The position numbers and the translations under genes were made by a program. The notes beneath the pieces were generated by a model. It was not told the DNA's origin. It did no database searches and saw nothing but the letters and a program-made list of their open reading frames with translations. DNA of 64,000 nt, taken from assembly GCA_958009085.1 (NCBI GenBank), contig OY253683.1, positions 186,001-250,000 on the forward strand. Direction: 5' to 3'. Each line of letters starts with the position of its first letter. Position 1 is the stretch's first letter. This DNA comes from Protoeuglena noctilucae. Its lineage: Eukaryota. Below, in pieces: positions 14,043 through 54,637 of this stretch.

Positions 14043-16550
14043 ATGAGCGCCCTGTGGGCCTCACCTCTGGCGCGCCTCTGCCCAGGGGGCCACTCGCGAT
14101 GGTCCCGTTTTGTGACTGTGGCCGATCGCCACCATCCTGTGGCATGTCGCGCTCTGGATGTGCGTAGCGAGTCCGAACGCCTAGCTTTGGAGGTCGAGAG
14201 CGCCAGGCTCCAATTCGAGGCAAGCAAGACTCGCCTAGCGGAGCTGGAAGCGAAGATGGCTGAAGTCAAGGCCGCAGAGACTGCGGACGCGACGAGGAGG
14301 CAGCAAGCGGAGGCGGAGGCGGGCGAGGACGAGGAGGACTCGGGTGCGTGCGCGCCCGGGACGCCCGCGCGGTTGCAACTCGGATTTGGAGAGCATGACG
14401 TGAAATGTGATTCGCTTGCCGTTCCTGGCGCAGAGAGCGAGTCGTCGCGCGGGAGCTCGGGGCCGACGACGGGCTTCTTCCTGAAGAAGCGCAAGACACG
14501 GCTGAAGAAGCGCAGCAGCTCGATGGGCAGGCTGGCGTCTGCGCAGCGAACGGACGAGATTCGGCAGGAGCGCGACATGGGAACCGCGGAGGCCGTGGAT
14601 GTCGTGTCGCCGCTGCTGAGCTCGGATGGGTTTGGGTTCGTGTCGGCCCCACCGAACGACGAGCTCAGCAAGGAGGACGCCCGGGACGCGTACAACGTGG
14701 GTGTCGAGGGAGATGATGCGCTGTGCATGCTTCCCAAGCCCATCTTTGTGGTTTCCGACTGCACGGGAGAGTCGGCGTGCAACACAGGCGAGCGGAGACC
14801 GCGCTGCCGCGTGATGGCCGCCAACCTCGCTCAGCTGCGAGATGGTGACTTTATTAAGGGTCCCAATCATCGTGGCGCTCGCAGTCAAGGCGGCGCTGGG
14901 TCAGTTCGAGGCCCTGGTGTCCACCTGCATTCCCGCGAATCTGATCATCTTCCGTTTCGTGGCGGACCGGCACAAGATCTTCGAGATCGTGCGACGAGCT
15001 CAGAGGGAGGACGCCCTCGTGGTCTTCACTCTGGCAAGTGTACACCTGCAAGACACGTGCACCTTGTCTCGCTCGTCGCCAGCGCGTGCACCCGCGGGAC
15101 GGGGCCTTGTGGGATGCACCAGATGCCCGCCGCTCCACGCAGGCGGACCCCGAGATGGCCAAGGCGATGATTAGCGCCGCCAAGCTGTACCGGGTGGCGT
15201 GGGTCGACCTCTGGACGTACCTCATTAACGCGCTGGAGGTGACGCGGCCGTTGCGTACCTCCCACCGGGGCTGCCGGGGCTGCCGCGATAAACAATCGCG
15301 ATGTTCGTTTACGATGATCGTTCAGCGAATTGTCATGGCGCCTTTCTGCTCCGCCCCTGCAGAGCCATTTGGAGCAGGTGCGCATCGGCAAGCCCCTCAC
15401 GGAGATATCCCGGAAGAAGGTTCTGGACAAGGACTACTTCAAGCTCATCGAGGCCGTGGAGTTCACGAGGTGCGGCGAGTGACTCGTTGAACTCTGCGTA
15501 ACGCAGCACCGCGCCCGTGCGTGTGACACCACAGCGAGAGGAGGGAGGCAGTGGGTGCGCCTGGATTACAACACCTGTCGTGTTTGTCTTGCAGGAAGAT
15601 GGACGACGGGGCCAACCCGCACCACTGGAAAGATGCTGACCTGTTGATACTGGGCGTGTCGCGGTCCGGCAAGACCCCGCTGTCCATCTACCTGGGGCAG
15701 CGGGGGTACAAAGTCGCCAACCTGCCCCTGGTGCCGGGCCTGCCGCTGCCCAAGGCAAGGCGGGGTGTCGTGCTTGCCGGTGCATACGCTCAGAAGATGC
15801 CAGCACAGCTGTGCTTGGTCGTTGCGGGAACAGCGCGCGGTTTATGTCATTGGTGCCAACAAAGACGGAGCTTGTCGCGCGATTACTGTCTTAAACAGGT
15901 CTCTGTCTCTCTCTATCTCTGCAGGAGCTGAAGGAAGTGGACGGTCGCAAGGTGGTGGGCCTGATCATCGATCCCAAGACGCTGTCCAACATCCGCGCGA
16001 ACCGCATGAGCGTCATGGGCGTGGAAGGGGAGCAGACGGCGTACAACAACTTGCGGGTGCGTCACGTGTGGTGTGCAGCTTGGACTGTGTTCCACAATTG
16101 CACAGCTTGTCAACCTCTCATTGGCTCTTGAGGACTGTCCTTGAGAGCCTGAGCGGGTCGCACCAGCCAGGCGTGCCTGTCGAGCGATGGGAGGTACCTA
16201 ACTCTCGATACCGGACTTGCCTGGCGCGCAGAAGATCGAGGAGGAGGTCGCATGGGCCAAGAAGCTGTACCAGGACCACCCGGACTGGCTGGTGCTGGAC
16301 GTGACCTTACGGTGAGAGAATGAAGTGGATGCCTGCCAACTGCATAGCGCCGCTGCTCGGGGATGTCGTCGCACCATCTCCCGCAACTGCTTCGGGGTGG
16401 CCATGATGCAATCTTATGCTCATGTCGCGCCGCAGGGGCGTAGAGGAGACGGCAGCTCGGATCCTGCGTGCTATGTCGGACCGGACGGGCGACGTGCACC
16501 CGCTTTGGCAGCAGGGCGTCAAGATTATGCAAGGAGTGGCACTGGATTGA
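14043..16550 (+). CDS. PDRP1: Chloroplast pyruvate,phosphate dikinase regulatory protein (bifunctional kinase/pyrophosphorylase, DUF299 family)
   Basis: Motifs [44 protein letters not shown] (P-loop), [10 protein letters not shown] and [15 protein letters not shown] are present. There are 7 predicted introns, three with GC donors. Stop TGA at 16548-16550. Confidence 0.93.
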
Positions 16551-17055: not shown

Positions 17056-19807
17056 CTAGATCGTGAGCCCCGCGGGCATGCCCGAGGGGTTGAAGCCCAC
17101 GTTGTCCTTCTCCTTGCGCTTCTTGCCCCCGTTGAGCAGCGCCGCCAGGGCGCTCTCCTCCTCCTCCGGCGCCTCGACCATCACCGCCTCGGTCGTGAGC
17201 ATGATGGCCGCGATGGAGCAGGCGTTCTGGATCCCCGACCGCGTCACCTTGGCCGGGTCGATCACGCCGGCCTCCAGCATGTCCACGTACGTGTCGTTCA
17301 TCGCGTTGTACCCCATCTCGAACGGCTTGCCCACCAGCTTCTCCGCTACCACCTCGCCGTCCACCCCCGCGTTCTGCGCAATCTGCTTGCACGGCGCCCG
17401 CAGCGCCTTGATCACGATGTCCACCCCGATGCGCTCCTCCTCGTCCGTCACAGAGTCCCGGAACGTCTCCAGGTACTCGGAAAGGTGCAGGTGAGCCGCA
17501 CCGCCCCCGGGGACAATGCCCTCCTCCACTGCGGCACAAGACGACATGAGTGTCCTTGTCGCATGCGCATGAGCAGGTGCCGACACGCAGAGCACAGCCA
17601 TTGCAAGAACGCTGCCAGTCGTGCTCTCTCTCTCTGCAACGACGGCCTCCCCCGCACCCTCAGCTCGCAGTGGCGCTGCGGCAAACTCACCCGCCGCGAA
17701 CGTGGCGTTCTTGGCATCCTCGACGCGCAGCTTGCGGTCCTCCACCTCGGCCTCCGTGAAGCCCCCGACCTTGATCACCGCCACCCCGCCCGCCAGCTTG
17801 GCGATGCGCTCCGACAGCTTCTCCGTGTCGTACACCGAGTCCGTCTGCGGCGATTGAGCAAGGACAGCCGTTACCAACATCGCTCATGGCGCCCGCCCAG
17901 GCATGGTGGCAGCATGCCGGCACCCGCAGCGCGTACATGGCACAGCTGCTGCCGGCGACCCAGGCGCAGGCGTCCCACGCACCTCTGCGAGCTCCTTCTT
18001 GAGCTGCGCGACGCGCATCTCGATCTCGTCCTTGGACGCCTGGTCGGCGATGAGGGTGGTGGTGGTCTGCGCGATGGTCGCCTTCCGGGCCACGCCGAGC
18101 TGGTCCATGGTGACCTGAGCCAGAGACATGGCCAGGTCCTTGGCGATGAACTCGGCCCCCGTCACGATGGCGATGTCCTGCAGGAGGGCCTTGCGGCGCT
18201 CCCCGAACCCGGGCGCCTTGATGGCGCAGACCTTGAGGATGCCCCGGAGCTTGTTGACCACCAGGGTGGCTAAGGCGTCGCCCGCCACGTCCTCCGCGAT
18301 GATCAGAAGCGGCACGTTGGCCTGCGAAGCGCGGGGAGCGGCGCGGTGACTGACGCGGCAACCAACGGGCGAGGGTTAGCATCGCGGCGCACCTGCACCC
18401 AGCTGTCGACCTCTCATCTCGCTGTGAGCGTGACTGAGACTCACCCGCGTGACCTGCTCGAGGATGGGGACGAGATCGCCGACGCTGTCGACCTTCTGGT
18501 CGGTCACCAGCACGCGGCAATTGTCGAACTCGCAGAGGGAGCGCTCCGTGGTCATGAACTGGGGAGAGATGTAGCCCCGGTCAATCTCCATGCCCTCCTG
18601 GACCTCGATCGTCGTCTCGAACGAGCTGCTCGTCTCGATCGAAAGCACGCCGTCGGCGCCCACCTGCGAGGGGCGCACACGGGCGAGCGTGGAAACCTCG
18701 CATGTGCGTCGCGCGATGCGAACACACGCACCCGCACACGCAAGGGCGCCGCGCGCGCACCTTGTCCAGCGCGTCCGCGATCATCTGCCCCACGACGTCG
18801 TCGTTGCCCGCAGAGATGGAGGCCACGTTGCGGATGTCGTCACGGCCCCGCACGGGCTTGGCCATCTCCTTGAGCTTGGCCACCACGTGGTTGCAGGCCT
18901 TCTCGATCCCGCGCTTCACCACCATCGCGTTGGCGCCCGACGCGACCGCCTGGACGCCGGCGCGGGCCATGGCGCGTGCGAGGATGGAGGCCGTCGTGGT
19001 CCCATCGCCCGCTGCGTCGTTCGTGCGGCCCGCCACCTCCTTCACCAGCTGCGCCCCCGCGTTCTCGACCGGGTCTTCCAGCTCGATCGCGCGGGCGATG
19101 GAGACGCCGTCGTTGATGACCTGGGGCACGCCGAAGGCCTGCTCCAGCACCACGTTGCGCCCGCGCGGGCCCACCGTCGAAGCCACCGCGTCCACCACCT
19201 TGTCGATGCCCCTCAGCAGGCGCTTCCTGTGCAGAGGGAACGAACGGCGGTCACGGCGTCCGCGGCGGTGCTCCGCGTCGCCGCCGGAAGCGCGGGGCGC
19301 GGCGGGGCGGTGGATAGGCGCCCAGAAAGTGCTGGAGACGCTTTGCCGCCTCCCCCCCGCTCGCACGCGCGCCGGGACGTGGCGAGCGCCCGGTGCGTGG
19401 CGGAAACGAAATTACTCGAGCGTTTGGCAGGGGCTGCTGCCCGCATGGCGCGGCAGCGGCGTCGCGGCGGGGCCCGGCAGCAGTCGCCCACCTTGACTCA
19501 TCCCCGTACAGGATCTGCTTCGCCTCCGCCTGCGCGGTCAAGCGAGCAAAGCGGGCCTTGCCCCTGGGCGCCTGACGAGCCGGGGCGCCTGCGAGCGCGG
19601 GGAGGGGGCCGGTTGCCGGGTTCTCGAACACCGCCGCTGGGCCGCGCGCCGGGGCCCTCTGCGACGGCCCGGCCGCCGCACGAAATCCATCGACGCGCGC
19701 CGGGCAGTTGTGACGCGCCAGGGCCCCGGCGCGCACTATAAAGGCCGGCGGAGGGCCGGGCACCCACCCGTGAGCGCGGGCGTCGCGATGGCCGCAGCTC
19801 CCGTCAT
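17056..19807 (-). CDS. CPN60A: Chloroplast chaperonin 60 alpha subunit
   Basis: Motifs [71 protein letters not shown] and VIDPAKVTR are present, with an alpha-type C-terminus GMPAGLTI*. A transit-peptide-like N-terminus starts [13 protein letters not shown]. Confidence 0.95.
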
Positions 19808-20033: not shown

Positions 20034-20668
20034 ATGGCGCCCGCAGGATGGCGCCCGCCCAGCGGCGAGGCGCAGCTCGTCATCCAGGCGCTGGGGCTGG
20101 TGCCGCATCCCGAGGGAGGCTTCTTCCGAGAGACGTTCCGCTCTGGAACCGCCCCCATGGTGTCAAAGGTGCCCCAGTCTGCCCTGGCGCCCACATGTGC
20201 TTTCCTGGGCTGCTGCAGGTGGTGTGAGCAGGGACCTTGGCTTCCACCCGGTCAACACAGGGCGCGACGGTGGAAGTGGATGACCGGGACGCCCTCATCG
20301 CCACGTCACGGAGCCGCTCGGAGGGCGACACGGGAAACCGCAACATCCTGACCTCGATCTACTGGATGCTGACGGCAGAGGACCAGTGCGGGTGCTGGAT
20401 CGACAACCTGAGCACGCACATCCACTACCACCATGGGGGAGGGCCCATCCGCTACCACATCGTCGATCCGGTCACGGGCCGGTACGAGACGAGGCTGCTG
20501 GAACCGCCCACGTGCGCGGGCGCCGAGCCCCAGCTGGTGGTCCCGGGTGGCGTGTGGAAGGTTAGCCGGCTGGAAGATGGCGCAGAGTACGCGCTCATCG
20601 GGGAGGCCGTGGCGCCGGGATTTGACGCCAGGGACCTCGTCCTGGTCACGGCCGAGATGCTGCGGTGA
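20034..20668 (+). CDS. DUF985 (Cupin_5) family cupin
   Basis: Motifs LGLVPHPEGGFFRETFRS, TSIYWML, HYHHGGGP, PQLVVPGGVW and GEAVAPGFD are present, with one intron near 20169-20260. The 3' end may continue past a donor near 20665. Confidence 0.88.
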
Positions 20669-23874: not shown

Positions 23875-24163
23875 CCCGCCGCCCCGCTCTTCTCCGGTCG
23901 CCCGTGGGTGCTTTGCAAACTTCTGCTTCTCCCCGCGATGGCGCCGTTTCCAGTGAGATTGGGACGCCCAATGCGTGCACAAAGCTACTGCGTGATCATC
24001 AAACTCGCGAACTGCCGTCTCTAGGAAGGCACGCATCGGTCCATACAATGGACTGGCGCGCGGGAGCCGCCAGTGGGCCCAATCCTCGCTTTCGAAGCGG
24101 TCGCATCGTTCCACTACCTACTCTTCAACGTCCTATGCATATCGCGGCGCAGAAATGCCCTAT

Positions 24164-27100
24164 CTACCGAATCTTGGCCCCCACCACCGTCTTGAGCGTG
24201 CAGGCGCCCGCGGCCGTCGCCAGCGCCTTGCCCCGGTACGTCACGACGCGCGATGCGTCCGAGGAGCACTCGGCGGACACCGCCTCGAAGATCTTCTTCT
24301 GCAGCCATGGACCGCCAGCAGCCGTTTACGTCGCAGAGCGAGCCGAGCAGGCGCACGCATGCATGCACGTGCACTCTGATGCTCGCCTTCGGGTTCAGCT
24401 GCTCGTCGGGCTCTCCGGGGAAGCCCTCCACGGAAACCCGGTCGCCGGGCTGGGCGCCCGCGGGAGGCTCGACCAGCTCCACCGTCGCCCCATCCGCCGA
24501 CTCCCCGCACAGGACCATCGCTTGCGACTCCACCCCGCGCATCTTGGCGGCCTTCAGGTTGCACACGCACACCACGCTCCTGCGACCAAGCAAAGCGACC
24601 GACCTCACACCACCACCTCAACTTGTGCGACACCACTACCCCGCCACCCCATACATCTCCTGCAGCCCAACCCACTGCAGGCGCGACCCACCTGCCCTGC
24701 ATCTGCTCCTCGGGGATGTACTTGACCAGGCCCGAGACGACCTGGCGGGGTTTGCCCTCCCCGAGGTCAATCTCCTCGATGTACAGAGACTCGGCGTCCG
24801 GGTGCTTCCAGGCCTTGAGGATCTTGCCCACACGCAGGTCCACGCGAGACAAGTCCACGGCGCGGTCGTCCTCCGCGGCCTTCTTGCCGCCCTCCTTAGC
24901 GCCCTTCCCACCCTCCTTAGCTCCATCGACGTTGCCCTTGCCCTTGCCGCCCTCCTTGGCACCCTTGCCACCCTCCTTGGCACTGCTCTCCTTGCCCTTG
25001 CCCTTCGCGTCGGGAGCCTTGTCCGTCGGCTTGGCTGCAGGGCCGTCCGCCACCACCTGCGCGCCCCCGTACCTCGCACGGAGCTCCTCGACCCTCTCGT
25101 TGGAGATGATCTGCAATGATATAAGATAAGCGTGGCATATAAGGGGTTCGGGTAACAGCACCCTGAAATGCGCTGCAACAACAGGCTGGGCTCTTGCGGG
25201 GCGGAGAGACGGAGCGAGAGAGACAAAGAGACCGGGGCTGATAGCGGGACTGAGAGCAAGCTGTGGGCAGGCAGCGGGACTGAGAGCAAGCTGTGGGCAG
25301 GCAGCGCGTTCACCTGGAAGAGGGGCGCCGGTGCGCCAATCACGTGGCCCTGGGGCACGCACGCCGAGAGGTCATGCGTCCGGTCGATGAACGCCGCGTC
25401 CAGCCGCGTGCACTGCGGGAGGGGGCAGAGCAGAGTCTGGTGCTCAGAAAGCGTGTTGGCGCGCATGGCTCTTTGCATACGATGACAACTGAGCTCGACA
25501 GTACGACTTGACGTCACAACTTGCGAAATACACAATCACGCTTGCAACAAAGCCAGACCCAGTCTGCCCCTCTCCCCACGCCCCTCACCTCGTCCCAGTC
25601 CAGGTTCATCTGCGCGAGGATCTTGCGGGTCAGCGACGGCATGTAGGGCTGCACCAGCGAGGCCAGCACGGCCGTCAGGCCCAGCGCCCCCAGCAGCACC
25701 CCGCCCGCGTGCTCGGGGTCCGTCTTGGCAATCTGCGCATAGGCCGCACCACGCGATGGTTGTTCTCACGACCGTCAGTGAGTCCCTAAGTGACTCTCAC
25801 ACGTGGGCGACGTGTCGCACACCGGCCTCGTCCCAGAGCCCGGCAAAGCAAAGGCAAGGTTGCCATGCCACCCCATGCGCATAGCTGCACAGGTCGCAGG
25901 CTATACAGGACAACCCCACCAGCCACGCATCCACTCACGTCCCAGTGCTTGTTGTCCTGGAGGTACTTGTTCCCCACTGCCGAGATGGACATAACGGTCC
26001 TGATGCCCTCCTTCAGCCGCACCTTCTCCAAAGCATCGACGTACTCGACCGTCAGCTCGTGCACTGCGGTCGCGCGATGAGGCCGCGCAAGACATAATAT
26101 CGTGCAGCTGGCAGAGACTAGACAAGTCAGCATCGAATAGCATGGTCATGAGCCAACGCTAGATTATGACGAGATGACTCGTACTCTGCTGTCGGCGAGC
26201 GTCCTGTGCACCACGACGTGTCAAAATGAAACCCCCACGCCACGTCGCGCATGCAAGCCGAGCCCAGCGCCCCTCACCCTTCTGGCTCATCTCAGCGACG
26301 ACCGCGGCCGCCTTGGGGCTGGGAGCGGGCACGCGCCCCCCCAGCCGCGCCGCGCAGTACGACAGCGTCCGGTTGACGAAGTTGCCCAGGTTGTTGAGCA
26401 GCTCCGAATTGTTCTTCGCCGCCAGGTCGTCCCAGCGGAAGTCCGTGTCGGCCGTCTCTGGGCGGTTCACCAGGAGGTAGTACCGCCACACCTGAGATGC
26501 AACGACGCGCGGCCACGTCACAACACGCTGCCACTGCGTTTGTGACCTCAAACCCCAGACACCAGCACATGCTGTCCTTTCCCATTCATGCATGCCGCCT
26601 CATCTACGACCCGAGTCCCTCCCACCCACCCCACCCCATCCACATCCAAGTCACACACCCGTGTCTCGCCCCACTCCCGGCTCCCTCCCTGCCCCACCTC
26701 CTGCCCCACCTCCCGCCTCTCCTCACCTCCGGCGGGATGCCCGTGTCCTTGGCGTCGTTGCCAAAGACGCCCGTGCCCCGGGACTTGGAGAACTTGCCGC
26801 CCTCGTAGTTCAAATACTCGGTGACGGAGATGCTGCGCATCATGGTCCAGTCCCGCCCCGTGCCCAGCTGAGTGCAGGGGAAGATGACCGTGTGGAACGG
26901 CACGTTGTCCTTCCCCATGAACTGCACCAGCTCCACGTCCTCGGGGTTGCGCCACCACCGCTCCCAGTCGGGCGTGTAGTTGGCTGCGGGCGGGGGAGGA
27001 CAGCTGATCATCGTGCTCATCGCGGTGGCAGCCGAGCGCGGCGGCAATGCACGCAACGAGCGACGATAGTACTATGAGCTGATGCTTCCCATGACTGAAC

Positions 27101-30100
27101 GCGTTTCCATTCGACAGCATGGCAGCTTGCGACGGCTTGCTACACGTCACACCCAATTGTAGCGAGCTGAAGCGCCCAGCTGAAGCTGTATGCTGCTTAA
27201 GTGCCAAGCTGAGGCGCCAAGACCGAGCGCCGAGTTGAAGCGCCCTCACCCGTGATGGAGATGTACCCGATCGGCGCGTCAAACCACACGTAAAAGACCT
27301 TCTTCTCGAACCCCGGGAGCGGCACGGGGGTGCCCCATCGCAAGTCGCGCGTGATGCACCTGGGGGGGGCGAGGTGAGTGGCTGCACTCTCAGGCAAAGT
27401 CACTGCAGGTCCCACCACAGGTCAGCTACTACAACAACCTTGCTCAGCAGTCTCAGCTCTCTCGACAATGTCCGTGGCGTGGGGATCGTCGAGCAATATC
27501 TAGCGTGGCAGCTCGCACGGCGCCTGGTCACGAAATCTCCCACACCCGCGTCCCGTGCCTCACCGCTGCTGGAGGCCGTCCCGGATCCACGCATTGGTGG
27601 TCGTCACGCAGTTGGTGGACCAGCCACCCGCAGATGACATCTTCTCGACGTACTCCCTGCAGGGCAAGGCGGTAAACTAGCCAGCGCATCACTCAATAGT
27701 ACGCATACGAGGCGTGTGCGGCACTACCACTGTGCATGGCTCGCCCAGCTGAGGTCTCAGGGCATGCTAGGCCATGCCCAGCATTGCAGCTATGCTTGTG
27801 TACACACTAACGCGTGGCTCGCCCAGCTGAGGTCTCGCCTGAGGCGCGGCTCGATGGCGGGGAGGTCCAGGAAGACGTGCTTGGTGGGCTTCAGCACCGG
27901 GGTGGTGCCGGAGAACTTGCACTTGGGGTTGATCAGCTCCGTCGGATTCAGCAGCGACCCGCACGCGTCTGCGAAGTGCTAAGAGAGGCGCTGTGACAGG
28001 TACATTGAGAGGCGCCGTGAATGAGCGGCGCCGTGACATGTGCTAGAGAGACGCGTGGGTGGTCGGTCAAGCCCAATGTGCCAGCCACGGAGCATAGCCA
28101 GCAGGACGGTGTCTTCTGCACAGCACGCACCGCACTGGTCCCCCCGCGCGTCCTCGTACTTGCACTTGGGGCACGTGCCGACGACGTAGCGGTCCGCGAG
28201 GAACTTGCCGAGACCGGGCGAGAAGAGCTGCTCCGTCTCGCGCTCCTTCAACAGGCCGTTCTTGTGCAGGTCCCTGCGAGAGTACAAAACACCATATAGG
28301 TTGCCCCTTCGCGACCCCCGTGCCCCTGCCACGTGGCACGTGTGGCATCCAAAGCGACAAGTACGAAAGTGGCGGTCCCGGTGTGCCGATCGTGACATGG
28401 CGCTGTCAGCAGCGAGGTCCCTCACAGGAAGATGGACTGGGCGATCTCGGTCTGGGAGCGCGTGGGCGTGCGCCCGAACTTGTCAAAGTCGATGTCGAAC
28501 CATTCGTAAATGGACTTGTGGATCGCGTGGTACTTGTCGCAAATCTGCTGCTCCGTCAGGCCCTCCTCCAAAGCCTGCGGGGCCAATCAGGGGAGACAGG
28601 CATTGACAGCACGTTTGCTGCATCCACCGCACGGCACGTTTGCGTCATCTCCGAGTCGCAATGACTTTATGCAATTTTCGCGAGCCTCGCCTTGGTCTCC
28701 GTGGCCGTGCCATACTCGTCCGTGCCGCACACGTAGACGACGTTGTAGCCCCGGGAGCGGGCGAACCGCGCGTACACGTCGGCGGAAAGCACGCACCCGA
28801 TGATGTTGCCGAGGTGGGGCACGTTGTTCACGTACGGGAGCGCGGAGGTGACCAGGATGTTGCGCGCCCCGGCTAACGGAACCTGCGGGGGTAACAGAGA
28901 GCGGGCTGCTTGCCACTTCACATGAGCGAGGCTCGCGCATGTGCGAGAGGAGTCGCAGCAAGCGGTCACCTTAGGCGTCGACTTCGCCAGCGCCTTCACG
29001 TCAGCGGCGACGACGTCGGACGCAGCGCTCGCGGCCGCTTCGGGAGCCAGCTGCGCGATGGCAGCGGCCGTGGGGCCCAGGTCCACGCGCGCTGCACCTG
29101 CCGCGGCCAACGTGCACGCGACCGCGATCTGCGCCAGCGGCCCCGCCTCCTTCACGTCCCTCTCCAGCGATCCCAGCGCATCCCGCGCCGCAGCGACCTT
29201 GGCAGCGAGGCCGTACGCGGCCGGACGGATGAGCGTCTCTTCCCTCTCGAGCACCGAGTCGAGCAGGGCTTCCTTGCCCTGCGCGAGACGACGCGAGCTG
29301 AGGTTCACGTCTTGATTAACACAGCTGCGGGGGACAGGGCTCGAAGCATCGCCCCTGGGCCCCTCCCTTCTTCCTCATGTCCAGCCGCACCTTGGGAATG
29401 AGCGACGCGCCGACCAGGCGCGCCGCTGTGTTGGGGCATGTGACGTTCACTCCGTCAGATTGCAGCACCATGGGGAACCTGCCGGAATACACCGCGTTCG
29501 CGTCGCGGATGGCCTTGAGGATGTCCTGCTCCGCGCACTCCACGACCTCCACCTGCGGACGAGGCGCGGTGATGCGAGCGTCACGACGTGACCGAAGCAA
29601 TCGCAGGCCGAGCCTTTCGGCTGAGGGCGCGCCCTCCCGGCGAGCCCAGGGGCGAGCAACGGCAGGATGCACGACAGTTGCGCCTTCGGAGGTGTGCCGC
29701 GAATTCTGTCATTCATTCCTGACGCGAGACAGACGTTCAGTACACCAGTGGAGCGCACAGCGAAACAGGGGCTCCGTAGAGCGACTCCTGCCCTCCATTC
29801 CCTCGGCGGCTAAGAGCGCAGCAAGCGGGCAGAAAGGCCGAGCTCCAGCAGCGTCAGCACCAGCGCAAGCTGCAATTTAGCCCCTTATGAACAGCAAGCC
29901 ATGGATCATTAGCCACCCGCGCGCGTGAGGCGCGAGCCAGCACGTAGCGGGTCTGCTCTGATGCAAATGCGAGCGCTCGCTGCCGGATTTGCGGCGCGAC
30001 CCATCCTTTAGCCAGCTAGGCACCTGAGCGGACGCGGCCTTCGCCGCCAGCAGGCATTTTAGGGCCTGTGGGTCCCCACGGCTGCGCACGAGCAGCTTCA

Positions 30101-46121: not shown

Positions 46122-48682
46122 ATGGCGATGCGCGACGTGCTCGTACCGTCTGTGCTGCGCGGGAACGGCGTGCTTGGCCCCGGGCGGCCTGAGGTAGCGA
46201 CTTGGACGACACTCGAGGCAGCCCTGCGCCTCTGCAGTTGCTTCTCGAGGCATCTGCTCTGATGCGCACGGCCTGGGACCGCATCAAGCCCATTCTGGAG
46301 CTCCTCGCGCGAAGCATGGAGTCGGACGGCCCTGTCCGACTGGCCGTGGTGCTCTGCCGCCCAGGCCCCGTGCCCGGCAGCCGCGGGAAGGTCGAGGTGG
46401 AGGCGGACTGGCATGCCATGTCCGTCACCGGCAGCGACTGGCTCGCGGCCGTGCCCTCGCGCATGGTGGTGGAGGACGGGTCGAGCGGGGGCGGCGGAAC
46501 AGCGGGGTTTCCTCTGGCACGCGGCCTCTTCGTGGCGCTCGAGAGCATCGTTGCCGACCGGGGTACCTCGCCTTCCACCTCCGCCGAGCCCGGTTGCCGG
46601 GATCACGTCATCGTCGCCTTCGCTGGGAGGTGCGTGTGGCACGGGGATTTGTCCCCGCCGCTGCCACCGCCCCAGGGCCACTGTGTTTCCTTTGCCTCTT
46701 ACCTTTCACATGTATCGTACCTCTCTTCCTGTCTGCAGGAGCAGCGACTCCCGTGACATGCTTCACACGCACTCGGGCCCGACCATGGCGTCGGCGCACC
46801 ACGTGGCGGGCGCCCTCGGTCAGTCCAGGGTATCCCTGTCCTTCGTATGGGCTCCCAGCTACCGGCACTTCGACAGCGGCGCGCTCGAGGTGAGTGCGGG
46901 CGGGTGCCCACCGCCCCAGCACGTCGCGGGAGGCGCTGGTCGAGCGGTGAGGGTCGTCTGCACCAATTGTGACCGTCGCGCTCTGTGCACGCGTGCAGGC
47001 GTTCCGGGCCGGCTTCCAAGAGCTCGCGGGTCACCTCAAGGAGAGTTTCGGGGAGGAGTGGCTGCTGCGTCGCACCCATGAGGTCAAGGATGTCCTTTCG
47101 TGGCATGGCCCCACCTTGCGCAAGTACGGCCACTTCCTGGTGCTGTCGACGGGGCGGTCCGGGCAGGGGAAGGCGGCCGTGCTGCCTAGCGGAGCGTGCG
47201 AGAGGTGCGCGAGTGGACGCCACGTCTGGTACCGTGCCACGCGTGTCCCCTGCCCCACATGACGTAGACGCAGGACGCGGACCTAGTCGCTCCCTCGCCC
47301 CACGCAGGCCATTCCAGCTGGTGTACAAGCAGTACGTGAATCTCATCGCCATTCCTCTCCAGGAAGCCTTGGAGAAGCAGGTGCAGACGTGGCTACTGAG
47401 ACACGACGTGGCTGACTGGTCTCTAATCACTGGTCTCCGAGCTCTGGTCTTGAATTCAAACTGGGTGCGCGTGCGCTTTCCTTGCTGTGCTGCGTTCAAG
47501 CCAGTGCTGCTTCTGCTGCAAGCACAGAAAGAGGCAGAGAGGCAGCGGCTGCGTGCGGAGGAGCAGCGGCGATTGGAGGCGGAGGCGGCCAGCCGACGCC
47601 TGGCTGCACAGCCGAGCGTGGTGCAGTACGGAGTGACGTACGCGCAAGACGCGATGCAGCACCAGCAGCAGGTGAGCAGGGTGGGTCGCTGAATGCGCGG
47701 ATGTCATGCCGGGACCGTAGGGGCGCCACGCACTGCTGAGGCGCACACCGCGTCTTCCGTCGCTTCCCCCGCAGCATCTCCAAGCCGTTTCGGGGGCGCA
47801 GGCGACATTAGTGGCGCAGGCGCAGGCAGCAGCACGGCCGGTGCGCACCGCACGCGCCCTTGCCTGGCCTTACCATCTTGTGCACGCTGTGTGCCTCAGA
47901 TGTTGCGCCCTTCGCCGACGCAGGCGCCCGCGGCTCAGTCTTCACCGTCAGCCTGGCTCAATTGCCAGATCGTGATTCACGGGTTGTTCCACAGCCCCCT
48001 GCCGACCCAGATCGTGGGCACGTTGACGCACGCCCCACCACAACCACGTGAGCCCATGCGCTCGTGCTTGCTGTGACACATCCCTTGCGTCCGTGGTCTC
48101 CTCGTCATGTGATGATTCCGTAAACGAAGTTCTACTGTCGCAGGTCTCGCCAACGTGGCTGGCGTCTGCAATGCATTCAGCGTGCTCCTTTCCGCCGTCT
48201 ACAACGACCTGGCTGTCCACGGAGTCTACGAGTATCGGCTCGGGATCCAGCTCGGCATCCCCGGCATGGTGACGGCACTGGCTGGCTGGCCTGTCAAAGA
48301 CGTGATGCGACCCCTGCCGACTGACCGTAATGGACAGAGAGACCCCCCCTTTCCAGACGCCCGCTGTGGAAACGGCGCTCAAGGCAGCAGCGTACCAAGG
48401 CGGCGCAATCATGCCCTCACACCGCGCGTTCATCTCCGTGCTCGGCCACAACCACGTCCTCCTCTTCGTGAGTCCTGCGGTGCGACGTCGGCCTGCTGCA
48501 CTGCCTCGGCGTCACAGGGATGACACAGCGCCCCTGTTCTGTATGCGCAGCTCATCCAAGACTTCCGGAGCGGCTTCTCGGCCGGTTTCGCCAAGATATA
48601 CATCCCGGAAGCGGTCCCCCTCAGCGTGCGGCAGCTCATCTCGGCGATGTCGCAGCAGACCGCAGCCACGCTGCGGGCTTGA
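46122..48682 (+). CDS. MED25: Mediator subunit 25-like protein (N-terminal VWA domain)
   Basis: The spliced start reads MAMRDVL|LLLEASALM, followed by VRLAVVL, GGGGTAGFPLARGLFVALE, VAGALGQSRVSLSFV and HFLVL, resembling the MED25/PFT1 VWA domain. A Gln-rich middle follows, and the last exon ends at TGA 48680-48682. Confidence 0.6.
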
Positions 48683-48912
48683 CAGGCTTGACAGTTGACC
48701 AACTAGTCTGGCGCGCTCGTTCCGCGCGTTCCTTCTTCTTCCCCTTACCCCCGTCTGGCGCTCGCCAGAGCTCTGCAGCGCCTGTTGCGGGCCAATTCGA
48801 GTTAATCTGCCGCCAGTCTGACAGCAACTTTCAAAGAAGTCGTGCTTTGTACATCGCTCGCAAAGCGGCTACGAGGTGCAGATTTGCTGGCGATAGGTGC
48901 GGCTGTGAGAAC

Positions 48913-51900
48913 ATGCAGGTAAGGCCATGCCGAGCCACTCCGCCGCTCGCGGATGCTATGAATCCGTTTTGGTGTACCGCGCTGCAAGTCCTGCGTCCAA
49001 GGGTGCACAGGAGCCGGCGCACGTGCCAGCTCGCACAGGGACCAGAGTCTGGTCCCTCCATGGCGTGACTCGCACTATGGCCTGTGGGCTTGATTTCGCT
49101 CGGCAATACATGAAGCAACTGAGCTATTTGAGGTAGTTGGCCGCTGTGGGGTCGAACGCGGCTCCTCGCGTTTCATTCCCAGTGCGCCCGCACCGGGCCC
49201 GGGCTCCGGGCCGCTGGCCCATCGCAGGGGCGCCGGAGGCTGACAGCACGTATTCCCCTGCGCGCCGTGGATGCCGCGAAGGACGTGGTTTCGAAATCGG
49301 GCCTCGCGGTGCTCGGCGAGGAGGGTCAGCGCAACGCCTTGTCAACGAAGGTTAGTTGCGCCCGGGAGCGCAGTTGGCGCGATGAAGGCAGAGTCCGGGA
49401 GCGCGGGGGGGTGTGGTTAGTGTCCTCTCGCATACGGGTGGCGACGATTGCGTGGTGCGTGCTCCGATGGAGCCGAACGGTGCAAGTGCATGCAAATGCA
49501 TTTGCCTGCCAGGCAAGACCCACGCTGCAATCGTCCCACGCAGATCAACCCTTTCGAGAAGAAGAAAAACGAGAAGGCCGGTCATCTGATGTGGGAGGAG
49601 GTGACGGACCTGGCCAAGCTCGTGCGTGAGGGCAAGACGAGCTGGGAAGACTTGGACCTGGACGACGTGGACATGCGACTGAAGTGGTGCGGGATGTTCC
49701 ACCGGCGCAAGCGAACCCCGGGCAAGTTCATGATGCGACTCCGGATCCCCAACGGCATCGTGACGTCGTCTCAGGTGCGTGGCTGTCCGCTGCGTGGCGG
49801 CGCCCACCTCGTAGCCCTGCCTGCTGTGCTCCCGCTGTGCACCTCACGTCGCCCTGTGTGCCTTGGCTCTGCAGATGCGCTTCCTTGCCGGGATGGTGGA
49901 GCGCGTGGACGGCTGCGCGGACGTGACGACCCGCGCCAACCTCCAGCTCCGCGGCATGGGCATCGAGGAGTGCGAGGAGGTCTTCATGGGGCTCTACGAC
50001 ATCGGCCTCACCTCGGTTCAGTCCGGCATGGACAACGTGCGCAACATGACGGGCAACCCCATCGCGGGCATCGACCCGCATGAGCTGGCGAGTGGCGCGG
50101 GCGGCGCGTCTCCCTCCAATGGCAGCCAGTCACGGGCCGGCCACGCGCAGCACGATCGTCCCAGGTCCGGCGCCGCCTCGCTCGCAGATCGACACGATCC
50201 CCCTGTGCCGCGCCATGGACGACATGATCACCAACAACCGCAAGGGCAACCCTGAGCTGGCCAACCTGCCCCGCAAGTTCAACATCGCCATCAACGCGAC
50301 GCGAGATGACTTCGTGCACACCCACATCAACGACCTGGCCTTCGACGCCGTCCGCGACCCCAAGGACGGACGCGTCCGCTTCAACGTCGTCGTCGGCGGG
50401 TACCTCTCCATCAAGCGCTGCGCAGAGGTACGCTCTCTTGCGTGGCCCGTGCCCCACTCGCACCGCCCGGCCGCGGTCGCACCCAGACCCACCCAGGTTG
50501 CCGCGGTGGTGAGGCCACCACCTTGGCCTTGACAACCCTCTGTGGCTGCGCCACCGGTGCCGGTCACCGCGCGCCCGCAGAGCTTCCCTCTGGACGTCAG
50601 CCTGGAGGTGGACCAAATCGTGCCCTTCGCCAAGGCGCTGCTCGAGGTGTTCCGCGAGTACGGCCTGCGTCAGGACCGCCAGAAGGCGCGTTTCATCTGG
50701 CTGGTCGAGGACTGGGGCGTCGAGCGCATCCGGGAGATGATCGCCAAGCAGATGGGCGTCAGCGGCTTCGAGCGCGCCGTCCCCGCGGCCCACGACACGC
50801 CCTGGCGCCGCCGGGACCTGATCGGCATCCACGACCAGAAGCAGCCGGGGCTGTGCTGGGTCGGGGCGAGCGTGCCCGCGGGCCGCATCACCGCGGAGGA
50901 CATGTTCGCGTACGCCGACCTCGCGGACAGGTACGCTATGCTGGGACGACCCAGGCTGGCCCACTGGGGGATTCGCGGACCGCGCGCTTTCTTTCGTTGC
51001 TGCGGCACATGCTGCGCACCCTGCCTGCTGCCGCGTCTTATGGGCGTGCCTGGCCCGACCAGTCACGCGCCCTGAGCGCAGGTACGGCTCTGGGGAGCTC
51101 CGGCTGACGGTGGACGAGAACATTTTGATCCCGAATGTGCCCAAGGACAAGGTGGAGGCGATCAAGGCCGAGCCCATTTTTCAGAAGCACACGCTCTCCC
51201 CCGGGCCCCTCATGTCGGGCCTGGTGTCGTGCACGGGCGCTGAGTTCTGCGGTTTCGGGCTCACTGAGACCAAGATGCCCGCGATCGAGACTGCGAGGAA
51301 GCTCGAGGAGGACCTCGACATCCCCCAGCCGGTGAGGGCGCGTTGTTGATGAAACGAGGCGTCACCCTCGCGTTGCCGCGTGACGCTAGCCTCGTCGCCC
51401 CTCGTTGATTCCCGCTCAAGCCCGTCTTTTTGTTCTTCCCTTTCGCTCTGTCATGAGATCAAACAAAGAGACGTGTCTCAGGGGCGCTCTCATATGGGTC
51501 TCAACGCCGTGCCTTTTCCCACAGGTGCGCATCCACTGGACGGGCTGCCCCAACTCGTGCGGGCAGGCGCAGGTGGGCGACATCGGGCTGATCGGATCGC
51601 CGGCCAAGAAGGACGGCAAGGCCGTGCAGGGGGTCTCCATCATTGGTGGCGGCACGATCGGGGAGGGCGCCAAGCTGGCATCGACAGGTGACGCGGTGCA
51701 ACGGTTTGGGCCATCCCGCGCGCTTGTGCGAGTCGTCGGGTGGTTGTTGCTGATTCGTGCTCGTGGCTACTGCGTTCTTGTCACGGATGGCCCCTGTACC
51801 GCCCTCGCCACCTGCGCCACTCCCACCACCCTCACTGCCCTCACCCACCACCCTTGCAGAGTTCGAGAAGGCGGTTCCGACCGAGGACGTCTACGATCGC

Positions 51901-51936
51901 CTCCGGGAGATTCTGATCAACGAATACGGCGCCAAG
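48913..51936 (+). CDS. NII1: Ferredoxin-nitrite reductase (siroheme/4Fe-4S), chloroplast; probably the N-terminal part of a NiR-FNT fusion
   Basis: Exons are 48913-48918, 49183-49350, 49544-49774, 49875-50087, 50188-50427, 50581-50930, 51082-51331, 51525-51687 and 51860-51936. Motifs include RLKWCGMFHRRK, FMMRLRIPNG, DVTTRANLQLRG, GMDNVRN, NLPRKFNIAI, SCTGAEFCG and WTGCPNSCGQ. There is no stop codon after the last exon before the FNT coding region begins. Confidence 0.96.
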
Positions 51937-52060
51937 GTGACCGAACGCAGCGCGGAAGCACGTGGTTCAATCAATTGTGAACATATGCTGCTCAGGCGAC
52001 GGAGGGGGCCCGAGCTGCCACGCGCCGATCCCAACCGTCGCCTGCCCTCCTTCCCCGCAG

Positions 52061-53086
52061 CCCCGGGGCCCTCGCGGCCCGGTGGTGGCAGCCATGTCGG
52101 CCGCGCCTGCGCCCACAGTGCTTCCCGGCGGCAACGGCGGGACCGCCCTGGCCCCGACCCTGGCCGCCCCGGCAGGCGACCTCGTCCCCCCGCCGGCCCT
52201 GGTGGACCGCATGGTCGCCGCGGGCGCGGCTAAGGCTGCGCTGCCAGCAGACAAGGTCGTGGTGCTGGGCATCCTCGCCGGCGTGTACATCGGGCTCGGG
52301 GCGCTGCTGGCGCTGTCCGTGGGGGGCAACGCCCCCGCGCTGGCGGCGAGCAACCCGGGGCTCCAGAAGTTCCTGTTCGGCGCCATCGGGCTGCCCATGG
52401 GCCTGCTCCTCGTCATCACCACCGGGGCAGAGCTCTTCACGGGCAACACCGCCATCGTCACTATGGCTTACCTCAGGAAGAAGGCCAGCCTGGTGCGTGC
52501 CCTGCCTGTGGCTGCTGCAGAACGTTGACATAGTAGAGCCACCCATCGCCACCCCTAGCCACCCGTCCTTAGCCACTCTCACATCCCCCGGGTTCCTCCC
52601 AGCTCATCCCGCTCCGCACCGCCGCCCTCGCAGGCCCAGCTGGCCAGCAACCTGACCCTGTCATTCTTCGCCAACTTTGCCGGCTGCCTGGTTGTCGCGG
52701 CCCTGGCGGTGGCGGCGGGCGTGCCGACGGCAGCGGCACCCACCGCGGTCGCCGTGGCCAAGACCGGCTACGCCACCTTCTGGACCCCCTTCTTCCGGGG
52801 CGTCATCTGCAACTGGCTCGTCTGCTCCGCGATCCTCCAGGCTACGAGCACCACGTCCTTCGTCGGCCGCTTCTTCGGTGTGCTGTGGCCCATCGCCGGC
52901 TTCGTGGCCATCGGCCTCGAGCACTCGGTCGCGAACATGTGCTTCTTCCCGATCGCCATCGCGCTCGGCGCCCCCGTGACGTGGGGGGCTGTCTGGATGG
53001 CCAACCTGATCCCCGTCACGCTGGGCAACATGGTCAGCGGCTTCCTCGTCGCACTGACCCTCACGAGCGCTTACAAGGAGCAGTAG
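52061..53086 (+). CDS. NAR1: Formate/nitrite transporter (FNT) family channel, NAR1-type; probably the C-terminal part of a NiR-FNT fusion (first internal ATG at 52094)
   Basis: Motifs GILAGVYIGLG, GLLLVITTGAELFTGN, ANFAGC, FFRGVICNWLVC, FVAIGLEHSVANM and NLIPVTLGNMVSG are present, with an intron at 52493-52633. Stop TAG at 53084-53086. Confidence 0.95.
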
Positions 53087-53347
53087 CTGTGCTGCACGGG
53101 CAGTGCTGCACGCCGTGTTGAAGACCGCTCTGTGATGCTCGGGGGCCGCCCAACTATGCCTCAGGCTGGCGGCGGGGTGGGGCTTTCTTCTTCTGGCAGG
53201 TAGGGTCATGAGGTCCCCACATCCTCTCCCTGAATCCTCACCGGTCAAAAGAGAACGTGGCGAAAGGGAATGGGCTAAAGTGTTAGCGGGTGTAGACAAA
53301 TCTTCAATCGCATCTGCAAGGGGCTTCTTCTGCAGCTTCACAGCGCG

Positions 53348-54637
53348 ATGGCCGCGCGCTCAGGGCGTGAATCGCCTTTCAAAAGTGACATCTGCAAGGG
53401 TGAGACTTGCTCGCATCGCCTCGCGTCTGGAAACGCCGCAGCAAGTGTTATTTTGACGCATTTCGGCCTCGCACACAGAGCAAGTGGTTCTGGTCACCGG
53501 AGGCGGCAGCGGCATTGGCCTGGAGATCACGCGGCAATTGCTCGAACATGGAGCTCGTGGCGTCGTCATCCTGGGGCGGAAAGGTGCGGATTGGGAGCCA
53601 GCGCGATTGGATATTTGCGAGTCGCAATGTTATGATCGATTGGACTCTTGCGGCCTGTGAGCGCAGCGGACATGATACGGGGCGCCGTGGCTGCGCTCGA
53701 GGAAGCCGGGTTTGCCGGGCGCATCCACAGCGTGGCGGGGGACGTGCGCAACTACAGCGACTGTGCCGGTGCCGTGCAAGCAGCGGGGGACAAGTTCGGG
53801 AAGCTGACGGTGCTGGTCAATTGCGCCGCGGGTAACTTCTTGGTGAGTCCCTGGCCTCGGCTGGCAGCGCAGAGGCGCACAACAGGCGCTCAGGGGTGGC
53901 ATTCCTCGGTGCCGTGTCGCGCAGGCGCCAGCATCGGTTCTAACACCCGGGGGCTTCAAGACGGTGTTCGACATCGACGCCCTCGGCACATTCCACTGCT
54001 GCAAGGCCGCCTACGAGGACCTGCTGGCCACCCGCGGCTTGGTGGTGAACATCAGTATGACCTTGCATTACACGGCCACGTTCTACCAGGCCCACGCCTG
54101 CGCCGCCAAGGCCGCGGTCGACACGCTGACCCGCAACCTCGCTCTCGAGTGGGGCTACCAGGGCATCCGCGTGAACGGCGTGGCGCCCGGCCCCATCGCC
54201 AACACGGCGGGCATGGCCAAGCTGGACCCCAAGGGCCGCGCGGCACCCGTGAGGACCCACCACGTTGCGCGCACATGACCCGACTCGTGCGAACCCACGT
54301 ACCCGCGGCGAAGAAAACGCCCTCCCGCCCTCCGCCGCCGCAGGACCGCAGCGGGCGCCCGGAGGACCGCATGATGCAGGACCCCATCCCGCTGGGGCGC
54401 ATGGGCGAGGCGTGGGACGTGGCCATGGCCGTGCTCTACCTCGTAAGCCCGGGTGCCACGTGGGTCACCGGCCACACGGTCGTCGTGGACGGCGGAAACA
54501 TGCTCTGGCGCCCGCCCGTCGTGAGCCCCGACAAGGTCGTGCAGGTCTCGCGGGCCGTCGAGGCGCAGAGCCGGGCGCCCGAGGGCGGCATGGCCGCCGC
54601 GGCCGCCACGCCCGCGCCCCCTCGCAGCCGCATGTGA
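53348..54637 (+). CDS. DECR2: Peroxisomal 2,4-dienoyl-CoA reductase (SDR family)
   Basis: Motifs SPFKSDICK, VLVTGGGSGIG, LVNCAAGNFL, IDALGTF, QAHACAAKAAVD, IRVNGVAPGPI and VVDGG are present. The C-terminus is the PTS1 signal SRM*. Confidence 0.9.

Follow-up and report, generated by a model that had tools for sequence, protein, structure and literature searches.

We have analyzed a stretch of 64,000 nucleotides (nt) of Protoeuglena noctilucae DNA (assembly GCA_958009085.1, contig OY253683.1, positions 186,001 to 250,000 of the forward strand; hereafter the window, from whose first letter all positions are counted). It contains, on the + strand at 48913-53086, a single gene in which a ferredoxin-nitrite reductase (NiR) is joined to a channel of the FNT family. 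The gene has 11 exons, an open reading frame (ORF) of 2583 nt and a predicted product of 860 amino acids (aa). A sequence-only reading of the window had proposed that one gene, one spliced mRNA and one ORF encode NiR followed by a complete FNT channel, and this is borne out by RNA contigs, by an identical predicted protein and by a continuous ORF in a relative. That the fusion gene is real and expressed is almost certain. Its novelty lies in the new and recurrent architecture of two well-known families.

The last NiR exon (51860-51936) ends in ...EYGAK at the donor AAG/GTGACC, and the acceptor ccgcag ends at 52060; on re-reading the sequence these sites and the 124-nt intron between them stand as first described. 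When 51937-52060 is spliced out, YGAK continues as PRGPRGPVVAAMSAAP... in the NiR frame and through the whole FNT part to the TAG at 53084-53086, with one further intron (52493-52633) inside that part. Without splicing the NiR frame stays open for 99 further codons, to a stop at 52231-52233, again as proposed. The fusion intron has 65% GC and is ordinary beside the other introns of the gene (100-264 nt); third codon positions have a GC content of 0.86 for the linker, compared with 0.91 for NiR and 0.94 for FNT. The sequence-only reading had also pointed to the lack of a TGTAA polyadenylation signal in 51937-52093. There is indeed none, but this carries no weight: TGTAA is not enriched in the window (13 occurrences on both strands, against 15.9 expected by chance), and its absence is therefore rejected as evidence either way.

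Positions 48000-54000 were compared with the RNA runs X2 and X4 (study P1) and X5 (study P2), which are marine metatranscriptomes, and with X7, one of the DNA-type runs from a single organism that also contain this sequence. The joint 51936/52061 (listed as 51934 to 52059, cut +2, GT..AG, skipping 124 nt) is found in one contig each of X2, X4 and X5, that is, in three runs from two studies, and in no contig of X7. A 13-kb contig of X7 shows 0 differences from the window over 48000-53530, so that the intron is present in the DNA and no stop codon is masked by a sequencing error, a danger that the earlier reading had named. Of the 10 introns of the gene, X2 and X4 each show every one as a joint, and X5 shows 8. 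A single contig of X2 (record 2, 2669 nt) spans 48880-53135 and comprises 33 nt of 5' untranslated region (UTR), 2583 nt of coding sequence and 49 nt of 3' UTR. RNA depth in the bin that contains the fusion intron equals the value expected from the 77-nt exon alone, which means that no RNA contig covers this intron.

Two predicted proteins from other collections agree with the spliced model. P0111 (860 aa; from JGI/IMG and Logan, on contigs of at most 2725 nt) matches it letter for letter, and P0029, a fragment from a marine transcript catalogue, extends from NiR into the linker. Apart from a gap of 54 internal residues (EEDLDIPQ...GGGTI, from the last part of exon 7 through the greater part of exon 8), P0029 is identical to the model; the gap is either an assembly collapse at a conserved segment or an in-frame alternative form. 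At 51525-51531 four other contigs of X4 join the conserved VRIHWTGCPNSCGQ-coding stretch to different upstream sequence, with a bin depth of 280.9. These are probably NiR or sulfite reductase genes of other organisms that share the segment, and it is likely because of this sharing that the X4 assembly of the present gene is split into two contigs there.

The product begins with a transit-peptide-like N-terminus, followed by NiR (residues ~40-570), an Ala/Pro-rich linker of ~40-45 residues and FNT (~613-856). Comparison with known families shows the NiR part to be, as judged from its residues, a complete siroheme/[4Fe-4S] ferredoxin-nitrite reductase and the FNT part a complete six-helix channel of the NAR1 type. 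Pfam matches to NIR_SIR and NIR_SIR_ferr occur in stop-to-stop ORFs across 49421-51980 and reveal the duplicated NIR_SIR_ferr plus NIR_SIR architecture on the exon ORFs; PF01077 and PF03460 are also found on P0029 (a cluster representative) and on the fused relative P0002. The best solved matches are plant NiRs, from tobacco (3b0g, E 6.7e-157, residues 57-568) and spinach (2akj, E 3.8e-155, residues 37-568), whereas sulfite reductases match far more weakly (E 1e-20 to 1e-23). The cysteines C453, C459, C494 and C498 (C-x5-C ... C-x3-C), which we take to be the cluster/siroheme ligands, are invariant across four aligned fusions.

Form_Nir_trans (PF01226) is matched by both FNT exons (52061-52492, E 2.6e-23; 52634-53083, E 6.3e-37), which together cover profile positions 2-93 and 96-235 of 240. 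Residues 601-850 align with LCIA (E 1.4e-57), NirC (E 1.1e-20) and FocA (E 5.7e-18). H807 in GLEHSVANM is aligned with the EHSVANM of LCIA, NirC and the 3tdp channel, and is invariant in the four aligned fusions, as is T693 in ELFTGN, presumably the equivalent of FocA T91. In FocA the central pore His (H209) and Thr (T91) are important (PMC9380403, accessible part). Both domains of the fusion thus look functional. An AlphaFold2 model from a 62-row alignment has a mean predicted local distance difference test score (pLDDT) of 86.3 and a predicted template modelling score of 0.67. Its pLDDT falls below 50 only at residues 1-33, which are rich in Arg, Ala and Gly and form the putative transit peptide, and at 574-609; residues 572-612 have no secondary structure. 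The model thus predicts two folded domains, a disordered N-terminus and a disordered linker (36 residues below 50, ~40 overall), in agreement with the flexible linker of about 40 aa that had been proposed.

Relatives and recurrence of the fusion

The closest relative (P0002/P0096) also has the order NiR-FNT, with 74% identity in NiR and 61% in FNT. In its contig L001 (3665 nt) the sequence from INPFEK to the stop codon is one uninterrupted ORF (L001:227-2629) comprising NiR, linker and FNT. Just upstream of this ORF is a pyrimidine-rich stretch ending cgatcgcag/ATCAAC, exactly at the position of intron 2 of the window gene, and the ORF before it has the ending GLAVLGEAGRIHASNPK, in agreement with the close of exon 2; the contig extends another 1036 nt past the stop codon. 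With an unspliced intron-like piece and this long downstream sequence, L001 looks genomic, or is at least unspliced RNA, and in its organism the NiR-FNT junction looks to need no splicing. L002, which is 94% identical over the last 335 residues, has a 17-residue in-frame insertion in the linker and intact flanking domains. Such fast change of linker length with the frame kept is what selection on a fused ORF predicts. Two other candidates were set aside: P0267 (68% identity), nearest among the NiRs without an observed fusion, is uninformative on this point, its ORF entering an intron after GKAVQ, and L003 is an ordinary unfused NiR that ends in FGAVEK before its stop codon.

These relatives bear on the objection that NiR and NAR1 are two tightly packed genes whose joined form results from mis-splicing, read-through or faulty assembly. 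Genes are indeed closely packed here, the RNA contig of the upstream gene ending at 48814 and the NiR 5' UTR being seen from 48818; NiR and NAR1 are separate genes in named green algae (accessible parts of PMC4620153, with its supplementary table, and of PMC2944026); and 118 of the 120 best NiR relatives listed are without the FNT family. However, NiR has no stop codon of its own unless it is spliced into the FNT frame, the joint is the sole form seen in the three RNA runs, L001 is fused with no intron at the junction, the two close variants L001 and L002 differ by an in-frame linker indel, and the DNA-type run reveals no hidden stop. We therefore regard two separate genes as extremely unlikely.

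Searches with the FNT part of P0002 returned 56 matches among proteins of 429-1367 aa, and 14 of these carry both NiR families as well as the FNT family. Both domains occur in 25 of the 384 proteins collected. Seven, in three clusters, have the order NiR-FNT (the cluster of the window gene; P0002/P0096; P0040/P0101/P0102/P0107). The reverse order, FNT-NiR, is found in 18 proteins of 13 clusters (representatives P0041-P0052 and P0176), which are 759-949 aa long apart from a 409-aa fragment (P0176) and have signal-peptide-like N-termini; their sources include one chrysophyte, Epipyxis sp. PR26KG (EukProt), and one MMETSP entry. With the linker and FNT exon as query, the best 150 of 1940 matches were ordinary or fragmentary FNTs, among which only P0029, P0119 and P0176 are relevant here. 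The FNT family is present in 2 of the 120 best NiR relatives listed. The named NiRs of green and red algae (Pedinophyceae sp. YPF-701, with 60% identity, Chlorella, Chlamydomonas, Volvox, Coccomyxa, Bryopsis, Porphyridium and others) measure 550-650 aa and end in ...FGATPK and a short Ala-rich tail. The sequence-only reading had likened YGAKPR at the junction to the FGAxPR end of plant NiRs; green-algal NiRs end instead in ...FGATPK(A)n. A protein-cluster search with P0111 found ordinary NiR clusters only (score 0.76) and no fused cluster of at least 50 members, and was uninformative.

In a quick NiR tree of 40 rows, the window protein and P0096 are sisters (99, starred) within a group that includes the Pedinophyceae NiR and P0267 (99, starred), while P0101 is placed elsewhere and the FNT-NiR fusions form one clade (100, starred). 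For the NiR domains of the three NiR-FNT fusions, a single clade is rejected by an approximately unbiased test (p 3.9e-07, with a log-likelihood difference of 63). In a quick FNT tree of 42 rows, from a set without Chlamydomonas NAR1.1, the FNT-NiR fusions lie on one side of a starred branch (95), and the three NiR-FNT sequences group with a green-algal FNT from Monoraphidium on an unstarred branch (SH-aLRT 91). The FNT-NiR proteins are a separate clade in both trees, which argues that their fusion was independent. The trees thus point to at least two independent fusions, and probably three. A single old NiR-FNT fusion, followed by losses or replacement, is possible and would be compatible with the FNT tree.

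Other partners of FNT channels were seen among the bacterial proteins P0053-P0094. These carry a response-regulator receiver (PF00072; ~430-490 aa, for example in Planctomycetota), a CBS domain (PF00571; Vibrionaceae 'FocA'), a nitrate/nitrite porter of the major facilitator superfamily (MFS; P0080, 706 aa) or GAF domains (P0072).

The linker and the fate of the fused chain

Our best guess is that the mature product is one chain, and from the sequences we lean toward a mechanism in which channel and enzyme are tethered. The single N-terminal transit peptide would import the entire chain into the plastid, and the FNT part would insert into the inner envelope, its N-terminus facing the stroma, and form the usual pentamer. 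Each channel subunit would hold one NiR tethered at the stromal mouth, and nitrite entering the plastid would meet the reductase at once. This would keep channel and enzyme at 1:1 stoichiometry and under common regulation, raise the substrate concentration locally and leave little nitrite free. In solved FNT structures the N- and C-termini lie on the same side of the membrane; NiR would therefore face the same side in both fusion orders, as would be expected if proximity is needed. The sequence-only reading had taken the N-terminus of FNT channels to be cytoplasmic, and in FocA the soluble N-terminal domain is so placed; it also serves as a gate of the pore and as a binding partner of the enzyme PflB (PMC8914244, accessible part). 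By the usual equivalence this would be the stromal side for a channel of the inner envelope.

The one spliced mRNA and the recurrent fusions suggest a coupling, physical or stoichiometric, between the import of nitrite and its reduction. As a tentative picture that goes further, and to which we would give somewhat less than even weight, import and reduction would have been fused at least three times in algae (twice as NiR-FNT in the green lineage and once as FNT-NiR of ochrophyte type), each fusion yielding an envelope-anchored pentameric pore with five reductases. Nitrite would pass directly from pore to active site and the stroma would be almost free of it; such a complex would be a natural covalent transport metabolon.

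Several points weigh against the tethered mechanism. The fusion is known here from DNA, RNA contigs and predicted proteins alone. Localisation, pentameric state and nitrite selectivity are predicted by homology only, the nearest solved relative, LCIA, having bicarbonate as its reported physiological substrate (PMC4620153, accessible part), and nitrite is suggested as the substrate of the present channel only by the fusion partner. The RNA support consists of assembled contigs, not reads; it establishes that the joined form occurs and is the one assembled, but rare isoforms, transcript starts and ends, and levels are invisible in it. P0111, P0029 and the P1 runs possibly come from related sampling campaigns, which makes them consistent but perhaps not independent. 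In X4 the FNT-bearing contig has a depth of 42.5 and the NiR contig one of 19.4, although such depths are not comparable between contigs. Finally, the linker varies in sequence and length, yet R571, V574, A576, A577, A580, A581 and P582 do not vary among the four NiR-FNT proteins aligned, and R..V.AA occurs in each of the four NiR-FNT linkers seen, L002 included (RGPVVAA, RGRAVVAA, RGKAVVAA in L002, RRTPVAAA). A pure tether would have no need of a conserved motif. The pattern R-x-x-V-x-A-A resembles transit-peptide cleavage sites of the V-x-A/A type. Immediately ahead of the conserved core, the stand-alone NAR1 of Micromonas pusilla has ARPTAVAAAAPAGDALPP, which includes ARPTAVAAAAP; the counterpart in the window is ...RGPVVAAMSAAP...AAPAGDLVPP. 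The FNT-NiR fusions have a linker motif of their own, [ILVF]-R/P-G/A-G-F/S/W, in 13 of 13 cases (for example SIRGGF), and in stand-alone FNTs with signal peptides a similar xGG motif precedes the mature start by 10-15 residues.

The linker thus looks like the kept tail of an old NAR1 transit peptide, at which cleavage may persist. The product could then be a plastid polyprotein: the fused precursor would be imported by its single transit peptide and cleaved in the linker, at the old end of the NAR1 transit peptide, by the stromal processing peptidase or another protease, releasing soluble NiR and a NAR1 channel. The fusion would in that case serve co-expression, 1:1 stoichiometry and co-import rather than channelling, and the mature proteins would be ordinary. 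This is what the motif R..V.AA..AAP in linkers otherwise so variable, the motif of the same type in the M. pusilla protein and the parallel motifs of the FNT-NiR proteins and of FNTs with signal peptides speak for. Internal cleavage has precedents in fungi, whose mitochondrial Arg5,6 precursor is cut in the matrix, and in Euglena and dinoflagellates with their plastid polyproteins. The motif is, however, of low complexity (Ala, Val, Pro and Arg) and known from three clusters and one variant, so that chance or composition could yield it, and it could instead serve the FNT N-terminal region in docking or gating. We know, moreover, of no internal cut by the stromal processing peptidase after a folded passenger of 570 residues in green algae. 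With motifs so simple and a sample so small, the linker is a lead and not a result, and we consider cleavage somewhat unlikely, though it is the chief and a serious rival of the tether.

An alternative that does not exclude the others is a dual output, in which a promoter inside intron 9 or exon 10, or a start at M578, would also give a stand-alone FNT as the main channel, the fused form being minor or regulatory. M578, the sole candidate for a separate FNT start, is encoded by an ATG at 52094, in frame and 33 nt past the acceptor, and L002 has Met at the same position; the residue is not conserved, however, being Ala in P0096/L001 and Leu in P0101/P0107. The greater depth of the 3' contig in X4 points the same way only weakly, and was rejected as a sign of a separate FNT transcript because contig depths cannot rank the parts of a gene. 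In X2 a single contig with a single depth covers everything, the 3' part is no deeper than the 5' part in X5, and no RNA contig starts in or covers 51937-52060. A product started at M578 would also be without any transit peptide. A separate FNT output is, in our judgement, quite improbable.

Gene features and neighbouring genes

The features of the gene are listed in Table 1. Two details of the earlier gene model are corrected. The first coding exon consists of two codons only (ATG CAG), as three RNA runs support, and intron 4 (50088-50187, GCGAGT...TCGCAG, 100 nt) is of the GC..AG type, the remaining nine introns being GT..AG. The joint of intron 4, seen in three RNA runs, is listed as GG..CA with one ambiguous base, and a shift of +1 turns it into GC..AG.

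Table 1. Features of the NiR-FNT gene, in window positions.
Feature	Position	Strand	Remarks
5' UTR	48818..48912	+	limit of RNA contigs; X4 contig side at joint 48915 to 49180 is 98 nt; no ATG in the 95-nt leader
Exon 1, coding (ATG CAG)	48913..48918	+	followed by a 264-nt GT..AG intron; joint 48918/49183 in X2, X4 and X5
Exon 2	49183..49350	+	Arg/Ala-rich transit-peptide-like N-terminus (residues 1-33, pLDDT <50) and start of NiR
Exon 3	49544..49774	+	NiR, INPFEKKK...
Exon 4	49875..50087	+	NiR; GC..AG intron next (50088-50187)
Exon 5	50188..50427	+	NiR
Exon 6	50581..50930	+	NiR; Pfam NIR_SIR and NIR_SIR_ferr
Exon 7	51082..51331	+	NiR; C453 and C459 in SCTGAEFCG
Exon 8	51525..51687	+	NiR; C494 and C498 in TGCPNSCGQ
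Exon 9, last of NiR	51860..51936	+	77 nt; ends ...REILINEYGAK (K566), phase 0
Fusion intron	51937..52060	+	124 nt, GTGACC...CCGCAG; spliced out in RNA, retained in DNA
Linker, residues 567-612, PRGPRGPVVAAMSAAP...LVPPPALV	52061..52198	+	conserved R571..V574.A576 A577..A580 A581 P582; M578 is ATG 52094
FNT channel part 1 (remainder of exon 10, 52061-52492)	52199..52492	+	T693 in LFTGN; PF01226
Intron 10	52493..52633	+	141 nt, GT..AG, within the FNT domain; joint in X2 and X4
Exon 11	52634..53086	+	FNT part 2; H807 in GLEHSVANM; stop TAG 53084-53086; Pfam; LCIA and NirC alignments
3' UTR	53087..53135	+	limit of RNA contigs: X2 and X4 to 53135, X5 to 53120

Gene calls on genomic contigs of the source organism (P0108, P0109 and P0119) split this locus into pieces; one such call reads a 'protein' of 144 aa from ATG 52094 on into intron 10.

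Upstream on the + strand lies a gene (48047-48814) with three RNA-supported GT..AG introns (48047 to 48144, 48267 to 48356 and 48467 to 48551) and no Pfam match in ORFs of at least 130 aa; the end of its RNA contig is about 4 nt before the first NiR leader base seen. Downstream, also on the + strand, is a short-chain dehydrogenase/reductase (53457-54634; adh_short_C2, E 8.7e-22) with an intron joint at 53841 to 53924 in X2 only. Farther away, between 15527 and 29374, the window has genes for a Kinase-PPPase (15527-15928, +), a Cpn60/TCP-1 chaperonin (17059-19411, -), a Cupin_5 protein (20228-20665, +) and a methionyl-tRNA synthetase with a tRNA_bind domain (24117-29374, -). No NRT2 (MFS), NAR2 or nitrate reductase (NIA) was found by Pfam in 253 of the 275 stop-to-stop ORFs of at least 130 aa, which cover 48 kb upstream and 11 kb downstream and from which short exons would escape; the other 22 ORFs lie in the NiR-FNT locus itself. 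Within the window, the fusion is thus outside any classical nitrate cluster.

Known systems and significance

That the fusion had not been described was suspected in the sequence-only reading. No description of a NiR-FNT or FNT-NiR fusion was found in the literature searched, whose coverage leaves out most subscription journals; fused proteins do, however, sit unannotated in public collections, and the reverse order exists in other algae. In the accessible parts of PMC13284251, PMC8679911, PMC10328945, PMC12269273, PMC12054182 and PMC2944026, any text with 'fused' or 'fusion' is unrelated (fused silica, fused membranes, reference titles). The accessible part of PMC4620153 mentions the fusion CNX1G-CNX1E, a promoter-reporter construct and a raphidophyte nitrate reductase-haemoglobin, with NiR-FNT not among them. 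Reviews of algal nitrate assimilation treat NII and NAR1 as separate genes (accessible parts of PMC4620153, with its supplementary table, and of PMC2944026).

The nearest counterpart is the pair NII1 and NAR1.1 of Chlamydomonas and other green algae, which belong to the same families and carry out the same step, nitrite passing into the plastid through the FNT channel and being reduced by ferredoxin-NiR. NII1 and NAR1 are often neighbours in nitrate clusters, for example ...NII1-NAR1-NIA1... in Micromonas RCC299 (PMC4620153 and PMC2944026, accessible parts). Unlike these separate genes, the present gene has one ORF, in which the NAR1 transit peptide would be reduced to a linker. The FNT-NiR proteins likewise combine the two families in one chain, with a variable linker that bears a short conserved motif and with NiR expected on the same face; they differ in having FNT first and a signal-peptide-like N-terminus, as for secondary plastids.

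In the FocA-PflB pair of Escherichia coli an FNT channel is functionally coupled, through its soluble cytoplasmic N-terminal region, to the enzyme by which the permeant anion is made or used (PMC8914244, accessible part). That coupling is non-covalent and concerns another enzyme and formate export, whereas here the link is covalent, at the same N-terminus, and would serve nitrite import. LCIA (NAR1.2) of Chlamydomonas (PDB 9v2a), the closest solved structure to the FNT part, is also an FNT of the plastid envelope; it differs in standing alone and in its reported role, the uptake of bicarbonate for the CO2-concentrating mechanism (PMC4620153, accessible part). The raphidophyte fusion of nitrate reductase with a truncated haemoglobin is alike in that a nitrogen enzyme is fused to a protein that supplies its substrate (same source, accessible part), but both partners are soluble and no membrane channel is involved.

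For annotation, the gene is a warning: callers of the prokaryotic style split the locus, as in P0108, P0109 and P0119, and counts of NiR and NAR1 based on domains would miscount it. The architecture should come as a surprise to specialists in algal nitrogen assimilation and in FNT channels, and could provide a template for engineered fusions of channel and enzyme. Of all the steps of nitrate assimilation, the entry of nitrite, a toxic ion, into the plastid is the one least understood. A channel and a reductase covalently joined in nature offer a direct handle on whether transport is coupled to reduction, on whether enzymes dock at the FNT N-terminus (compare FocA-PflB) and on which substrate NAR1-type channels carry. 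The presence of the fusion transcript in marine metatranscriptomes of two studies indicates that the gene is in use at sea. A strong argument of the Rosetta-stone kind, that separate NiR and NAR1 also cooperate in algae without the fusion, comes from the repeated and independent occurrence of the fusion in both orders.

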